Source: Octopus vulgaris (lineage: Eukaryota). Taken from it: a stretch of 64,000 nucleotides of DNA. The translations under genes and the position numbers were made by a program. The stretch covers positions 26,536,001-26,600,000 of the forward strand of contig OX597824.1 in NCBI GenBank assembly GCA_951406725.2, written 5' to 3'. A model generated the notes under the pieces. It worked only from the letters and a program-made list of their open reading frames with translations. It did no database searches and was not told the origin of the DNA. Positions 5,943 to 59,564 of the stretch are shown here, piece after piece; position 1 is the first letter of the stretch; every line of letters begins with the position of its first letter.

Positions 5943-6171
5943 GGAGTAAACACATAAATGTGAAACAAGGTGGAAAAAAGAGTACTCAATACCAGTGGTA
6001 GAGTAATATGCTTTATTTAAAGCAGCAGAAAATTCAACAAAACCTGTTACTCTGAGTTTCCCGTTGCAGTTCATCGGACAGTTTTTGCTAGAACGTTCTA
6101 GCAAAAACTGTCCGATGAACTGCAACGGGAAACTCAGAGTAACAGGTTTTGTTGAATTTTCTGCTGCTTTA

Positions 6172-18615: not shown

Positions 18616-19444
18616 ATTAAAAAAAAATTGTGACCAAAAAAAAACAAAACAGTTCAGGAATTAATTATATTTTGAAGTTTTAGCTCAACTAAGGAATTTG
18701 TGGATAGATTGATCAAATGTAAGAAGTTAAGAGTACGTATGTGTATGATTTTTCGACATTATATACAAACTTAAACCTTAAATGTGTGGAAGATGGTATT
18801 TTTAGAATATTAGATATTTTAAATAAAGGATATAAATGTATATCTTTAAAGGATGGTAAAGGTTTCTTGTCTAATTGTAGATATAAGGGATATACTAATA
18901 TAGTAATAGAAAAATGAAAGAAATGGTTAGTTTTATTATTAATAATTCATTTGTAATGTTAGCAGGTAGGGTGTTTGAGCAGGTTAAGGGAATTCCCAAG
19001 GGTGGCAATTTTAGCTCCCTATTGGGGGACCTTTATTGTTCTTCATGGGAGTTGCTTTTTCTTAAAGACATATGTGCTAGGAAAAAGATGATTTGCTTAA
19101 ACAACTTGATGGATGCTGCAGAAACATAGATGATATATCTACACCTAATTATGGTTTCTTTGAATTTTTAATCAGAAAATTATACCCTAGAGAGCTGAGA
19201 GCCACCAGAAATGGTAACAATATAAGAAATATTAATTATTTAGATGTCAATCTAGGAATTAAGGATAATAATGAAATATGTACTGACATATATAATAAAA
19301 CAGAAGACATGGCGTCGATGCCATGGTTCAGTAGTAAAATTCCTTCTTTTATTGGTTATGGTGTTTTTGCGGGGCAAATTGTTAGATATAGTAAGTACTA
19401 TTATTAATAATGCTAATAAAATTTGGGAAAAGAATAAATAAACT

Positions 19445-21227: not shown

Positions 21228-21567
<340 letters not shown>

Positions 21568-25082: not shown

Positions 25083-25925
25083 ATTTTGTCTAGTTGTGCA
25101 TCAATAGGACGAATTTTGAAAGGGTTGTCTTTCGTAGATTTGAACCATGTTTCTTTTCTTTGATTAATTTTTTTTATTTGTTTCAGTCATTCGGCAGCGG
25201 CCATGATGGGGCAGTATCTCAAACGGCTTAGTCGACCAATGCCTTGTGAATGAATTCGGTAAACGTAAACTACGTGGAAGATACAGACAATATATACTTC
25301 CACATCCACACAAGCACAATACTTGAACACAGACAATACACACATACACACAACACACACAACACGCACACACAACACACATAGACAAAGATAACTTCCT
25401 CCCACATGCATACACTCTACACATGCACACTATTTGCTCGCAGTGACATACACACACACATTCACACGCATGCACATGTACACACACGATGCGTAATAGC
25501 ACACATCAACTGCTACACACAACACACACGCACGTTACACACGCACACATACACGTTAAAATCACTGGCCCCCATTCACAAATACACACACACACACTCA
25601 CAAACACTTCTCTCATACAAACAAACGCTTGAGCACCTCGTCTTGTTGAGATTACCATGAATCATCTTTCCTTCATTCAACATCTCTTTATTATTATCTC
25701 CCTTTCATTCAACCTCTTTTTCTTCGAATCATTCACCATGTTGGACCACTGAACTCAACACATTTTTTTCTTTCTCTTTCTATTTATTTCTTCTTATTTC
25801 TTTCTGTCGAAGAGTGTAGGCTTGAAACGTAAAAAAACCCAAACATTTCCATTTTTCCCTAACGCCGAACCAAAACACTTGGATGTTGTCCCTAAACCTA
25901 TCTTCGTTTTTTCCCTATAAATTTG

Positions 25926-25953
<28 letters not shown>

Positions 25954-25960
<7 letters not shown>

Positions 25961-26209
25961 TTAGAGACAAAACCACTCTTATGCAAATCAAACAAAGAAA
26001 GACTTAAGTCAATACATAAAAAATTTTATATTTAATTTATATAAATTTTTTTATGTATTGGCTTAAGTCTTTCTTTGTTTGATTTGCATAATAGTGGTTT
26101 TGTCTCTAATTAATATAATATAATATTTTACTATAAAATGGGATTCAATCCTAAATCTGATTTTTCCCTGTAAATTTGGATTTATTCCCTAATATTTATT
26201 ATTATTATT

Positions 26210-26215
<6 letters not shown>
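25954..26215 (+). mobile_element. Fold-back element (arms ~25954-26020 / 26048-26116) between (TA)n tracts
   Basis: ATTAATTAGAGACAAAACCACT... inverted; 3' end TTCCCTAATATT. Confidence 0.7.
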
Positions 26216-26245
<30 letters not shown>

Positions 26246-26339
26246 TCACACTAGGAGGGACAAAGTCATTACTACCAAAATTATACTAATCATACCCAAA
26301 TGCAGTTTTTCAAAGCAAGACATTTAAAAAATGAATTTA

Positions 26340-26395
26340 GTTCTGTATCACCGTGATTTCACATACAACTTACGTCTAATGATCGTCAGCAGAAC
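26340..26395 (-). ncRNA. Type I HHR (second copy 26820-26875)
   Basis: Reverse complement of the 27353-27408 motif. Confidence 0.85.
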
Positions 26396-27352
26396 TGATT
26401 CTGAACACATCATAAATAAACTACCAACCTTACGTAGCGAAGACGAACAGACAACTGCTCACTCCGGCCAAGCACATGGAATGTTTATAAATCATATATC
26501 CGGTAAATGGCGGGCTTTTTACGAACTGCATGTCGGGTAATGGAAAGTATTTCGGAATAAGTTTAACAATTAAGGATAATCTCTTAATAAGGGATCTTAA
26601 CAAGAAATTATCGGGTAGCTAGCGTGAAAACCTCATAAAAGAAAAGAATCCGAAAATAATTTTTTTTCTTTTGAACAAATTAATTATATCTATATTGTAT
26701 AGAGGGCATTATTACACATAAATGCCTCACACTAGGAGGGACAAAGTCATTACTACCAAAATTATACTAATCATACCCAAATGCAGTTTTTCAAAGCAAG
26801 ACATTTAAAAATGAATTTAGTTCTGTATCACCGTGATTTCACATACAACTTACGTCTAATGATCGTCAGCAGAACTGATTCTGAACACATCATAAATAAA
26901 CTACCAACCTTACGTAGCGAAGACGAACAGACAACTGCTCACTCCGGCCAAGCACATGGAATGTATATAAATCATATATCCGGTAAATGGCGGGCTTTTT
27001 TACGAACTGCATGTCGGGTAATGAAAAGTATTTCGGAATAAGTTTAACAATTAAGGATAATCTCTTAATAAGGGATCTTAACAAGAAATTATCGGGTAGC
27101 TAGCGTGAAAACCTCATAAAAGAAAAGAATCCGAAAATAATTTTTTTCTTTTGAACAAATTAATTATATCTATATTGTATAGAGGGCATTATTACACATA
27201 AATGCCTCACACTAGGAGGGACAAAGTCATTACTACCAAAATTACCGGATATATGATTTATAAACATTCCATGTGCTTGGCCGGAGTGAGCAGTTGTCTG
27301 TTCGTCTTCGCTACGTAAGGTTGGTAGTTTATTTATGATGTGTTCAGAATCA

Positions 27353-27408
27353 GTTCTGCTGACGATCATTAGACGTAAGTTGTATGTGAAATCACGGTGA
27401 TACAGAAC
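27353..27408 (+). ncRNA. Type I hammerhead ribozyme
   Basis: GUUCUG CUGACGA UCAUUAGAC guaa GUUGUAUGU GAAAU CAC G GUG AUA CAGAAC; predicted cleavage after A27402. Confidence 0.85.
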
Positions 27409-27666
27409 TAAATTCATTTTTAAATGTCTTGCTTTGAAAAACTGCATTTGGGTATGATTAGTATAATTTTGGTAGTAATGACTTTGTCCCTCCTAGTGTG
27501 AGGCATTTATGTGTAATAATGCCCTCTATACAATATAGATATAATTAATTTGTTCAAAAGAAAAAAAATTATTTTCGGATTCTTTTCTTTTATGAGGTTT
27601 TCACGCTAGCTACCCGATAATTTCTTGTTAAGATCCCTTATTAAGAGATTATCCTTAATTGTTAAA

Positions 27667-27732
<66 letters not shown>

Positions 27733-27954
27733 TGTATATATACATGTATATGTGTGCGTGTGTGTGTGTGTATAGTTGTAATTTACAGAAAAACAAAAGA
27801 CCAAACAGGTGTATGAACAATAGGCAGATGTATTAGTGTGTCGCTTGAAAGAGTGAGAAAGTCTTTTAAGTTTCGAGCCTACGCTCTTCAACAGAAAGGA
27901 ATAAGAGAAAATAAACAGAGAGAGAATAAAAAAGTTGTATATTTAATGATCAAA

Positions 27955-50399: not shown

Positions 50400-51250
50400 T
50401 CTGGATGCAGAATAGTGACTGAGTTATTTTGTAAAAACTATGTCATTTCATATTTATCTCCACCGCCGCTCTGATCATCCACATCATACAACCAGATCAA
50501 ATCCGAAGTCCCAGGATTTGCACAGATATTGGAGATTATTGGAAACATTCAAATACTTTTGTGCCCCATTATGTAAAGCGCAGTTATAATGAATTAAGAT
50601 TAAAGGAAATCGCGAATGACATAACTGAAATTAATAGAGATAATCAAACTTTCACATCTAATTCTAGCAGTCAGAAAAGAGCTTATGGCCAAATTCCTTT
50701 AGTGATTAACTGGCACCGAAGTTTCTCTGGTATTTCAAAAGTGTTGCATCACAGTTACCAACATATTTCAGAAAAATATCCTCATTTCCGACAAATATTT
50801 TCTCTTCCGCCTATTGTAGCCTTTAGACGTAACAGAAATATTAGAAAAATACTGACCGGTATCTTTAATAAAAAATTCCATTGGAGTTTCGGACGGCTGC
50901 TTCCCGCCAAAACACCCATAAGAGAGGTAAGTCCTGTTCGTTGTGCAATAACATGAGTAAGACCAATTTTATCAAGAATTATAGCAGAAATGTTATTATT
51001 TACACAGAAGGAGGGACCTGTAAGGATTCCCATTTGGTGTATGCAGCGGAATGTACTATACACAAAATGATTTATGTTGGTTGCACAACAGAGCGATTAC
51101 AAAAACATTTAACGGACATAGGCACGACGTCAAGAACAATAACAGTGGTTCCACGGAACTTGCAGAACATTTCACATCAAATGGGCGTAAATTTGAGGTC
51201 GACTTAAAGGTGCACATTCACTGCCCTTTCAGTCCTCAAAATCCATGAGG
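50400..51250 (+). pseudogene. Penelope-like element C-terminus (thumb/linker + GIY-YIG), Neptune/Poseidon-like
   Basis: LHRRSDHP; IPLVINWH; PPIVAFRRNRNIRKIL; CSLC; LVYAAECTIHKMIYVGCT; FNGHR; ELAEHF. Confidence 0.88.
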
Positions 51251-54110: not shown

Positions 54111-55330
<1,220 letters not shown>

Positions 55331-55764
55331 TATGCGCGTGCGTCTATGTACGTGTGTATGCGTGCATGCGTATGTGATTGTGTTTGTGTGTGTCTCTGAC
55401 TTCGTGTGTGTGTGTGTGTGTTCGAATGTGAATGTGTTTGTCTCTCTCTCTCTCTCTCACCATTCTGTTTATATATGCGTATATATGTGTATATGTGATT
55501 GCATGTGCGTATGAACTTGTCTCTCTCACTCTGTGTGTGTGTGTGTATGTATGTGTGCGAGTATGTTTGAATTTGTCTCTCACTATATGTGTGTATGTAT
55601 GGCTTTGCCATTCTCAGTATATTCCCAGTATATGTGTGTATATTGTCTGTGTGAGTGTGTATGTGCGTGTGAATGTGTGTGTGTGCGTTCTTGTTTGTTG
55701 AACTGTGTGTGTGTGTGTATGCGCGTGTATAGCTTCATAATAAATAAACGAATAGACAGAGAGA

Positions 55765-56453
55765 TACGAGAGGAAGTCAAAAATTATCCGCACTTTCACC
55801 ATAACAAATCTTTATTGTCATACTGCCTTCTGGGTATGTGTGCTTATAGTTGGTATTGTTGTGATCACGGAATCGAAGTTTGAGCCTGATCGCGCCATTT
55901 TTCTTTCTGGCTCCACTAGCAATGTGCATGAAAAAAAGAACAAAAAGCAATGATCCCATTTCTCTGTAGAGTATGATCAATATTGCAAGATACAGTGCTT
56001 TGCTGGCCAACAAACTGAAGCCAGCAATTCGCACTAAATGTCGAAGCCTATTGTCGAAGAAAGTTTTGTTGTTGCATGACAATGCACGTCCACTCACGAC
56101 CGCGCAGACCGTTGAAACCATTAACCAATTGTTTTTTGGGGGTACTGGAACACCCTCCCTACAGCCGAGAGCTCGCTCCTTCTGTCTATCATATCTTTGG
56201 ATCGCTGAAAGATGGTTTACGAAGTCGTCGATTTCCTACGGATAGAGATGTGAAAGAAGCGGTGCATAAATGGTTGCATGACCAACGGAAAATCCTCTTC
56301 TTGGAGGGAATATGCAGGCTTGTGTACCGCTGGACCAAGCACATCGAAAAGGAAAGAGACTATATAGAAAAATGACGTACTTGTTTATCCCCTGCTTTAG
56401 TGTAAATACATTGAAGAAACAAGAGTGCGCCCAATTTTTGACTTTCCCTCGTA
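55765..56453 (+). mobile_element. Internally deleted mariner element (duplicate at 58471-59158)
   Basis: TIRs TACGAGAGGAAGTCAAAAATT / AATTTTTGACTTTCCCTCGTA; LLHDNARP, HPPYSRELAPSVYHIF, RW.K.IE...DYIEK. Confidence 0.92.
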
Positions 56454-56610
56454 TACAATAAATAAAATAAATGCGCCCTTTTAAAGCCTACCCAGGTTCA
56501 TGGGCCCGTTTTTCCGGTTTCAATGTCGTTTCCCGGTTTCATTAGTGACTGGAAAAAGGATATATGTATTTGCAAAGTGGACCCCTTCGCATCTAAGACC
56601 AGTGATTGTC

Positions 56611-56654
56611 GTGCGCTGATGACGGGTAAAATATTCAGAAACCCGGGTCCGTGC
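56611..56654 (+). ncRNA. Minimal type I HHR (duplicate 59316-59359)
   Basis: GUGCG CUGAUGA CGGGUA aaa UAUUCA GAAAC CCGG GUC CGUGC; canonical core, palindromic stem III ACCCGGGU. Confidence 0.75.
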
Positions 56655-56870
56655 GTATCACGTTGGGTCGACGACGGGAATGATGGTTATCCTTTGCAAA
56701 TACTGTTAGGGCACAGAAAGTGTGTCAATAGTCAGCTGAAGAAGATGTATCCTGAGGTTACAAGCTACAGTAACATCCACCCTTAGTGGTTAGCCACATT
56801 TAAATGGCAAATATACTTCACATTGTAGTACATTACTGTTCATACTTCGTTCAGAGATTTATTATATATA

Positions 56871-56938: not shown

Positions 56939-57038
56939 NNNNNNNNNNNNNNNNNNNNNNNNNNNNNNNNNNNNNNNNNNNNNNNNNNNNNNNNNNNNNN
57001 NNNNNNNNNNNNNNNNNNNNNNNNNNNNNNNNNNNNNN
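56939..57038. other. Assembly gap (100 N)
   Basis: Direct reading. Confidence 1.
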
Positions 57039-57744
57039 GTCACGTGTGGGACGAGTCGGTTTATCAGCTGAGTCTATCGTCAATATTGTCACGCCTCCTT
57101 CCTTCAAACGGGAAGGAAGAGCTATTTTCATCATCCTTGTGGCTATGGCGAAAGAATGTATCTGGTGGACGCGTCTGAAAGGATTGGAGACAAACACTTT
57201 CCTCTCTGGTCAATCTCTCATCAACTTCTTCAAGTACCACTTGAAAAGGAAAGTGAGAGTAGAGAGGCAAGTTTTGTCTAGCGAATGTTTTAAAAAAAGA
57301 TGGGTGAATGTAGCAAGAATGGCACGTATGAATGACGAAGCCACCTTGAGCATAGTCCTATGAACCCAGAAATCGAAAACAGAGAGTTGCTTATTTGCAA
57401 AAAAAAAAAAAAGAAATATAAAATGTGACATCATTGACCGAGGTTACCGTGGTCTTTTCCGTAGGCTTTTCTTTGCACGGGTAAACCTCACCTGTCCTCC
57501 CCTTTACACTTCATATTGACATTTCTGTGATAACGATCCCTATTGATCAATTTTTTTTCCTCCCCCCTTTTTTTTAACCCCCCCTTTTTTTGTCCTCTTT
57601 CTCTCCTTTTACGATCCCTTTTGATCGAAACTCCCCCTTCCTTTATTTTTTATTTTTTATTTTTTTCTTAAACCTTCAAAAGAAAAGCTCTACCTTGTAA
57701 TTTGTTCTATCTGTGTGCAGCCCTGTGTGGCTAATAAAGAAACA
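57039..57744 (+). mobile_element. Tx1/L1-like LINE ORF2 C-terminus and 3' UTR
   Basis: Open frame ...LVAMAKECIWWTRLK...CFKKRW...* (AKxxIWxxR motif), T-rich UTR, AATAAA, (CTAT)n. Confidence 0.75.
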
Positions 57745-57820: not shown

Positions 57821-59564
57821 TGGGTGTGTATATGTTTGTGTGTCTGTGTTTGTCCCCCCAACATCGTTTGACAACAGATGCTGGTGTGTTTATGTCCCCG
57901 TAACTTAACGGTTCGGCAAAAGAGACCGATAGAATAGGTACTAGGTTAACAAAGATTAAATCCTGGGGTCGATTTGCTCGACTAAAGGCGGTGCTGCAGC
58001 ATGGCCACAGTCAAATGACTGAAACAAGTAGAAGAGTATGCGCGTGCGTCTATGTACGTGTGTATGCGTGCATGCGTATGTGATTGTGTTTGTGTGTGTC
58101 TCTGACTTCGTGTGTGTGTGTGTGTGTTCGAATGTGAATGTGTTTGTCTCTCTCTCTCTCTCTCACCATTCTGTTTATATATGCGTATATATGTGTATAT
58201 GTGATTGCATGTGCGTATGAACTTGTCTCTCTCACTCTGTGTGTGTGTGTGTATGTATGTGTGCGAGTATGTTTGAATTTGTCTCTCACTATATGTGTGT
58301 ATGTATGGCTTTGCCATTCTCAGTATATTCCCAGTATATGTGTGTATATTGTCTGTGTGAGTGTGTATGTGCGTGTGAATGTGTGTGTGTGCGTTCTTGT
58401 TTGTTGAACTGTGTGTGTGTGTGTATGCGCGTGTATAGCTTCATAATAAATAAACGAATAGACAGAGAGATACGAGAGGAAGTCAAAAATTATCCGCACT
58501 TTCACCATAACAAATCTTTATTGTCATACTGCCTTCTGGGTATGTGTGCTTATAGTTGGTATTGTTGTGATCACGGAATCGAAGTTTGAGCCTGATCGCG
58601 CCATTTTTCTTTCTGGCTCCACTAGCAATGTGCATGAAAAAAGAACAAAAAGCAATGATCCCATTTCTCTGTAGAGTATGATCAATATTGCAAGATACAG
58701 TGCTTTGCTGGCCAACAAACTGAAGCCAGCAATTCGCACTAAATGTCGAAGCCTATTGTCGAAGAAAGTTTTGTTGTTGCATGACAATGCACGTCCACTC
58801 ACGACCGCGCAGACCGTTGAAACCATTAACCAATTGTTTTTTGGGGGTACTGGAACACCCTCCCTACAGCCGAGAGCTCGCTCCTTCTGTCTATCATATC
58901 TTTGGATCGCTGAAAGATGGTTTACGAAGTCGTCGATTTCCTACGGATAGAGATGTGAAAGAAGCGGTGCATAAATGGTTGCATGACCAACGGAAAATCC
59001 TCTTCTTGGAGGGAATATGCAGGCTTGTGTACCGCTGGACCAAGCACATCGAAAAGGAAAGAGACTATATAGAAAAATGACGTACTTGTTTATCCCCTGC
59101 TTTAGTGTAAATACATTGAAGAAACAAGAGTGCGCCCAATTTTTGACTTTCCCTCGTATACAATAAATAAAATAAATGCGCCCTTTTAAAGCCTACCCAG
59201 GTTCATGGGCCCGTTTTTCCGGTTTCAATGTCGTTTCCCGGTTTCATTAGTGACTGGAAAAAGGATATATGTATTTGCAAAGTGGACCCCTTCGCATCTA
59301 AGACCAGTGATTGTCGTGCGCTGATGACGGGTAAAATATTCAGAAACCCGGGTCCGTGCGTATCACGTTGGGTCGACGACGGGAATGATGGTTATCCTTT
59401 GCAAATACTGTTAGGGCACAGAAAGTGTGTCAATAGTCAGCTGAAGAAGATGTATCCTGAGGTTACAAGCTACAGTAACATCCACCCTTAGTGGTTAGCC
59501 ACATTTAAATGGCAAATATACTTCACATTGTAGTACATTACTGTTCATACTTCGTTCAGAGATT

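Follow-up and report, generated by a model that had tools for sequence, protein, structure and literature searches.

Organization of the locus

The window analysed here, a stretch of 64,000 nucleotides from Octopus vulgaris, carries between positions 26213 and 27751 an array of repeat units inserted in a (TA)n target whose left half occupies 26213-26242 and whose right half occupies 27669-27751, neither half being assigned a strand. The long arm of the array (26243-27244, minus strand) is formed by 2.09 head-to-tail units, namely two copies that are 99% alike (26243-26723 and 26724-27203) and a 41-nt unit-start fragment devoid of hammerhead (27204-27244). The short arm (27242-27671, plus strand) is an inverted copy of 430 nt, or 0.9 unit, and is 99.8-100% complementary to 26557-26986. 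The term sense designates the hammerhead strand, minus for the long arm and plus for the short one; unit coordinates are counted on this strand, with the hammerhead core at 334 and the cut after 377. The arms meet head-to-head at an inner junction where they overlap by 3 nt (27242-27244), joining unit positions 439 and 217, and the sense 3' ends of both face outward into TA. This anatomy confirms an earlier note on the same DNA, which had described tandem 480/481-nt units with a short start and an inverted copy within (TA)n. The two-armed design is common to 47 other loci.

Among the contigs of four sequencing runs none spans the inner junction. A single 510-nt contig, from one run whose type is unrecorded, covers one unit, a length that a cycle and a tandem would both give. 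No tRNA gene is found close to the array. An imperfect palindrome of about 160 nt (25955-26115) adjoins a TA tract, and a high-copy repeat flanks the array on both sides (25803-25830, plus strand; 27869-27895, minus strand). This repeat, which is very deep in the contigs of several runs, has a hammerhead-like short stem followed by GAAAC, with the first core segment altered.

Elsewhere in the window, an Rfam match to MIR395 on both strands of 6044-6145 corresponds to a perfect palindrome and is probably a foldback insertion rather than a microRNA. Two near-identical blocks (55276-56790 and 57982-59495) lie on either side of an N gap at about 56950-57050 and may have been duplicated by the assembly.

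A type I hammerhead in each unit

The earlier note had assigned a complete hammerhead to each unit, and three type I cores are indeed present. Copy 1 lies at 26339-26396 on the minus strand (core 26389-26357, predicted cut between 26346 and 26345), copy 2 at 26819-26876 on the same strand (core 26869-26837, predicted cut between 26826 and 26825) and copy 3 at 27352-27409 on the plus strand, with core motifs at 27359-27391. They feature CUGANGA, GAAA and NUH core elements and three stems, stem I being open. In copy 3, stem I pairs 27352-27358 with 27403-27409, the first core segment (27359-27365) is followed by stem II (27366-27387) and GAAA (27388-27391), and stem III spans 27391-27401. Its predicted cut is after 27402, the position that had been proposed previously. 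Two details of that proposal need correction: stem I has 7 bp and a 4-bp extension instead of 6 bp, and stem III, given as AUCAC-G-GUGAU, is in the monomer a 4-bp helix with a 3-nt loop.

The two predicted cut sites of the long arm are 480 nt apart, and a minus-strand transcript could release there the predicted 480-nt cut-to-cut monomer (26346-26825, minus strand). The 81-nt hammerhead region alone folds no better than its shuffles (z 0.33), and the active fold is 1.4 kcal/mol above the minimum both alone and in the circle.

No Rfam hammerhead match is obtained in the array at the gathering score or at E values up to 10. This silence was discarded as a test of the hammerhead because covariation supports the motif. 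The stem III pattern has 2,406 matches in the genome vs 17 for the reversed control. A set of 70 distinct copies, composed of the window and loci L031-L100 and L141-L193 chosen by core and stem III only, was used to examine the other two stems; these copies are related and do not represent independent events. Stem I pairs 1-5 are paired in 91-94% of them and stem II pairs 2-4 in 89-100%, with both-side swaps, as exemplified by a first pair that is G-C in 34 copies and A-U in 31. All four bases occur at N7; at the first position of stem II pairing falls to 56% of the copies. Stems I and II covary across sister families, and the comparative evidence for the putative ribozyme is strong.

Stem II begins with a U.U mismatch in the family of the window unit (family A), like in the axolotl hammerhead HHR_Amex2, whose monomer cleaves weakly while the dimer cleaves well (PMC7229834; this and the other publications are cited here from the accessible parts of their texts). 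Eight of nine Xenopus retrozyme dimers failed to cleave in vitro (bioRxiv 10.64898/2026.07.22.740005). Since the U.U mismatch would weaken the family A monomer as in axolotl, and most of the Xenopus dimers stay uncut, an uncut linear multimer is possible as template for insertion.

A near-perfect palindrome between TA tracts at window positions 21230-21360 carries two back-to-back type I hammerheads of another family, with cores at 21288 on the minus strand and 21297 on the plus strand.

A young, dispersed and non-coding family

A search of the 2.8-Gb genome gave 1,426 candidates for the window unit, and the 40 that were scored contain 231 matches, mostly 97-100% identical and spread over many contigs. 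A sister family with a unit of about 500 nt has 2,099 candidates, and the pattern search retrieved further sister families 65-77% identical to the window unit. The locus is one copy of a young dispersed family that has several sisters.

The GC content of the unit is below 50%. It is considered non-coding because its only frames, of 101-110 aa, lie on the antisense strand, the 101-aa one has no Pfam match above cut-off and indels are spread throughout the family alignment. The RT and GIY-YIG frame of an autonomous Penelope-like element (PLE) is absent from the unit. Folded as a circle, the unit reaches -120.9 kcal/mol vs -93.4 +/- 5.9 for 60 shuffles (z -4.7). The consensus fold of 12 units is a long rod. 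One of its poles is formed by the hammerhead and the opposite one by a hairpin cluster that contains the two end sites described below; 30 pairs are changed on both sides, a count that has no shuffle control. The designation "retrozyme-like" of the earlier note is therefore appropriate for a protein-free, dispersed young family with a type I hammerhead per unit and a strongly self-paired predicted circle. A unit length of 480 nt is not exceptional, published families ranging from 51 to 972 bp.

A LINE of 5.3 kb that has two frames, 495 and 1,133 aa long (L042:3957-9242, with L060; L244:5033-7760; L245:2619-7918), was found within family A units at one hairpin (unit 274-290), two of the three insertions having target duplications, of 6 and 17 nt. 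Its presence in this same hairpin in 3 of the 30 closest copies suggests a target preference for the retrozyme; many other copies of the LINE are inserted into the LINE's own 5' region. Three family B loci that have common upstream DNA were dismissed as one duplicated locus adjoining a LINE.

Two fixed outer ends, one per arm

The outer ends were compared among 40 family A insertions, from the window and 40 fetched stretches, a sample biased to window-like copies. Twenty-four are two-armed, 15 single-armed and one truncated. The sense 3' ends face outward in all 24 two-armed insertions, and the 21/21 with two canonical ends use each site once, namely site 1 (unit 32-38) in one arm and site 2 (unit about 165) in the other. 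The window, L035 and L067 have one canonical end only. Single-armed insertions end at site 2 in ten cases and at site 1 in five.

A check sample took in, in order of position, all places represented in the first 100 pattern matches of contig C1. It gave 53 stretches which, after removal of one without unit and one chance match and the joining of two, represent 51 insertions. Twenty-seven are single-armed (14 ending at site 1, 13 at site 2) and 24 two-armed, again with outward sense 3' ends in 24/24. One of each site is found in the 18/18 clear two-armed cases; two others are ambiguous but compatible and four have one non-canonical end. Both samples together show outward ends in 48/48 and one site per arm in 39/39 (p about 2e-12 at even odds), the ends having been assigned by visual inspection of BLAST limits that fall within TA microhomology, and the 2 ambiguous loci excluded.

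Sites 1 and 2 are about 130 nt apart and nearly all canonical outer ends abut (TA)n. The arm that ends at site 2 is the longer one in 16/21 (p 0.02). Among the 48 two-armed insertions there are seven non-canonical ends, including the left end of the window, where the long arm stops at 26243, about 30 nt short of site 1. The short arm of the window ends at site 2 (unit about 163-165) and has internally a conserved hairpin and then site 1 at about 27537 (27500-27543, plus strand). These insertions bear the marks of PLE-type insertion, namely a head-to-head inverted 5'-truncated arm, fixed 3' ends and a tail on one end, here of about 130 nt.

These ends bear on the view that the array arose as a satellite or foldback through DNA-level events or through misassembly, with an incidental hammerhead, or that the inversion is kept for dsRNA. 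Some long arrays have probably gained units by local copying, and the window arms are perfectly complementary over 430 nt. Against it stand ends that are fixed and strand-specific, outward in every two-armed insertion and found on many contigs, the covarying hammerhead, and the free variation of the inner junctions and of arm length (from 43 nt to 15 kb). This explanation is largely refuted and retains very little probability. The inversion is geometrically able to provide the dsRNA of ~430 bp that the earlier note had envisaged; it bears no sign of selection as a dsRNA source because inversion is routine in these insertions (24/40 and 24/51) and the inner junctions are variable. The inverted arm is the usual scar of PLE insertion and not a dsRNA device. 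The connection with PLEs and the pair of fixed outer ends had escaped the earlier note.

Template and inner junctions

Diagnostic bases are common to all units and both arms of one insertion, while the two insertions that lie 600 nt apart in L033 carry different haplotypes. In 7 of the 24 two-armed loci a private base, absent from all other sampled loci, is present in all covering units of both arms. Both arms run across the cut site in 16/21. A gathering of inner ends at the hammerhead cut was looked for and no excess appeared, 2 of 63 inner 5' ends being 5 nt or less from the cut vs 1.4 expected; their distribution along the unit is uniform (KS p 0.30). The single haplotype per insertion, the arms that cross cut sites and the inner ends that do not gather at the cut suggest that one circular RNA is copied from both target ends. 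From a linear monomer that had been cut, no more than about 270 or 135 nt could be obtained.

The longest arm was found in a sister-family insertion (L185-L186, G000:C1:64639653-64655253), where a 15-kb arm of 31 units is combined with an inverted arm of 1.1 unit, the two ending at sites 2 and 1. In this 31-unit arm 22 of 30 units are free of substitutions and six have one common variant. Another long arm has 12 units. Variants restricted to some units, found in L037, L038, L051 and these six units of the 31-mer, require later local copying or assembly error.

A rival explanation keeps the same two-ended PLE insertion and takes as template a long linear uncut transcript of a tandem array, cutting being rare or a matter of trimming and a circle being unnecessary. 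The weak base of stem II in family A is in its favour, as is the dispensability of hammerhead cleavage for insertion in vitro (PMC11167929), and copying of a linear transcript from homogeneous arrays would also give a single haplotype. Given arms that reach 12 and 31 units, it would need up to 31 ribozymes to stay uncut; it could maintain or shorten arrays but not lengthen them, and it leaves aside the conservation, across families 65-77% identical, of the hammerhead and of the rod that closes the cut-to-cut monomer. We regard the linear multimer as unlikely, although a serious alternative; the circle explains simply both the multi-unit arms and the uniform inner ends.

The inner junctions of the two-armed family A insertions have an overlap of 1-14 nt in 16/24 and a filler of 1-241 nt in 8/24. 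Foreign DNA of 241 and 48 nt is captured at the inner junction in L046 (8273-8513) and L035 (4675-4722), respectively. Another conceivable origin of the inverted arm, suggested for rotifer PLEs (PMC3846280), is self-priming or fold-back on an antisense template. Five of the 48 inner junctions do fold back at nearly the same unit position (p 0.005), but the other 43 join unrelated positions, and both outer ends, not one, are joined to TA at fixed sense sites, always one of each. Such an origin is most improbable.

Search for a partner PLE

The window has two decayed remnants. A PLE remnant at 50435-51207 covers the GIY-YIG region, with a weak Pfam match and many genomic relatives, and an RT-thumb-like piece at 19081-19407, which we take to be PLE, has no Pfam match. 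The GIY-YIG remnant, its RT and the second PLE-like remnant were rejected as partners, for they represent only decayed families without similarity to the unit.

The genome also has a young PLE family (RT and GIY-YIG, CX4CX2C linker) with an unbroken 781-aa frame in more than 25 of the 104 copies listed, which is read as putatively Neptune-type from the linker and PMC8557442. All seven printed 3' ends run into (TA)n, with a 35-nt tail in three and none in four; this 35-nt tail is to be compared with the 130 nt of the retrozyme. Copies at L181:4517-7935 and L194-L213 are young TA-targeting elements that feature a long repetitive 3' UTR and a degenerate minimal hammerhead, and the L181 element has the 35-nt tail on one arm only. 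This young family was rejected as the partner since it has no sequence in common with the unit. Blastn of units A and B against 40 older-PLE loci and 20 young-family loci gave only AT-rich chance matches, and no autonomous PLE with a matching terminus (pLTR) is found among the three PLE groups sampled (60 loci). The young family shows that suitable PLE machinery is present in the genome.

Relation to known elements

Animal non-LTR retrozymes consist of type I hammerhead repeats in tandem and are expressed as circles; PLEs were proposed as their mobilisers (Cervera and de la Pena 2020, PMC7229834). The octopus family is like them in its tandem non-coding units of a few hundred bases with one type I hammerhead each, its low GC and its predicted self-paired circle. 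It differs by its unit of 480 nt vs 150-450 in that study and by a two-armed form, with two fixed ends in (TA)n, in half of its insertions; cleavage and circles, demonstrated in the published systems, are predicted here. The words "inverted", "microsatellite", "octopus" and "cephalopod" do not occur in the main text of that paper, as distinct from its supplement. The plant LTR retrozyme differs by a type III hammerhead in two LTRs, whereas the present element has type I topology and multimeric units.

Retrozymes were subsequently linked to PLE pLTRs (Li, Clavereau, Pollet 2026, bioRxiv 10.64898/2026.07.22.740005). In Xenopus, 24 of 57 families are tied by pLTR homology to annotated elements, nearly all of them PLEs. 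The window array corresponds to the retrozyme definition of these authors, two consecutive units with complete hammerheads, and its 480 nt fall inside their 51-972 bp range; it differs by the lack of a matching autonomous terminus in the PLE sample described above. An analysis of ends or inverted arms does not appear in the accessible text of the preprint.

Insertions of PLEs are biased to TA, frequently include a 5'-truncated copy in inverted orientation and carry on one side a tail of 30-40 nt (PMC8557442; PMC3846280). The anole PLE protein, a predicted dimer, cuts and extends both strands and has two internal start sites that define the tail (PMC11167929). Insertion does not need hammerhead cleavage in this system and start-site use is equal between strands, two properties that were counted against the explanation by a circle and paired sites. 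The octopus family has in common with EN+ PLEs (PMC8557442, PMC3846280, PMC11167929) partial tandems, a head-to-head inverted 5'-truncated copy, a tail at one end, a TA bias and two internal RT start sites. It differs by having no RT or GIY-YIG frame, by sites about 130 nt apart compared to a 30-40 nt tail, and by the possibility of several full units in both arms.

The element class, like the inversion and the one-sided tail, has been published for animal retrozymes and PLEs. The main texts covered contain neither the 130-nt spacing nor a counted rule of one site per arm nor arms of several units on both sides, and no cephalopod retrozyme or strict start-site pairing between arms was found in the literature accessible outside subscription papers and supplements. 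The window element is a new member of the animal non-LTR retrozymes with a PLE insertion footprint.

A model for insertion

The locus is very probably a PLE-mobilised retrozyme. In its fuller form the preferred reading, which we hold as reasonably probable, is the insertion of a protein-free animal non-LTR retrozyme whose predicted circle would be copied into (TA)n by a PLE enzyme from both ends. The tandem and inverted anatomy, the TA target, the conserved hammerhead, the fixed ends with one per arm and the single haplotype are directly established. The events leading to them are proposed as follows. A multimer transcript would be cut to monomers by the hammerhead and then closed into a circle. 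A PLE protein, probably a dimer, would cut both strands of the TA tract. Both DNA ends would then serve as primers for reverse transcription of a single RNA, with the start at site 1 for one end and at site 2 for the other. The two polymerases may go round the circle a variable number of times before the two cDNA ends are joined via a few matching bases or filler. The window copy would be such a product, its site-1 end lacking about 30 nt. A more specific version, in which the PLE dimer binds a single circular ribozyme RNA through two structured sites separated by 130 nt and carries out rolling-circle reverse transcription of up to 31 turns simultaneously from the two ends of a cut TA repeat, is put forward as a tentative possibility.

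Significance

The single window locus shows no special function, and its value lies in a testable mechanism. Retrozyme circles as templates of reverse transcription were a hypothesis only (PMC7229834), and the formation of tandem or inverted PLE insertions with a one-sided tail is stated as open in the accessible text of PMC8557442. This young family, of which there are hundreds of copies, uses two start sites that lie well apart, strictly one per arm, and offers a direct in vitro substrate for both questions. If a PLE dimer does act on the circle, the octopus genome would be the first large in vivo record of retrozyme circles as transposition template, and the PLE "tail" would mark which subunit primes which DNA end.
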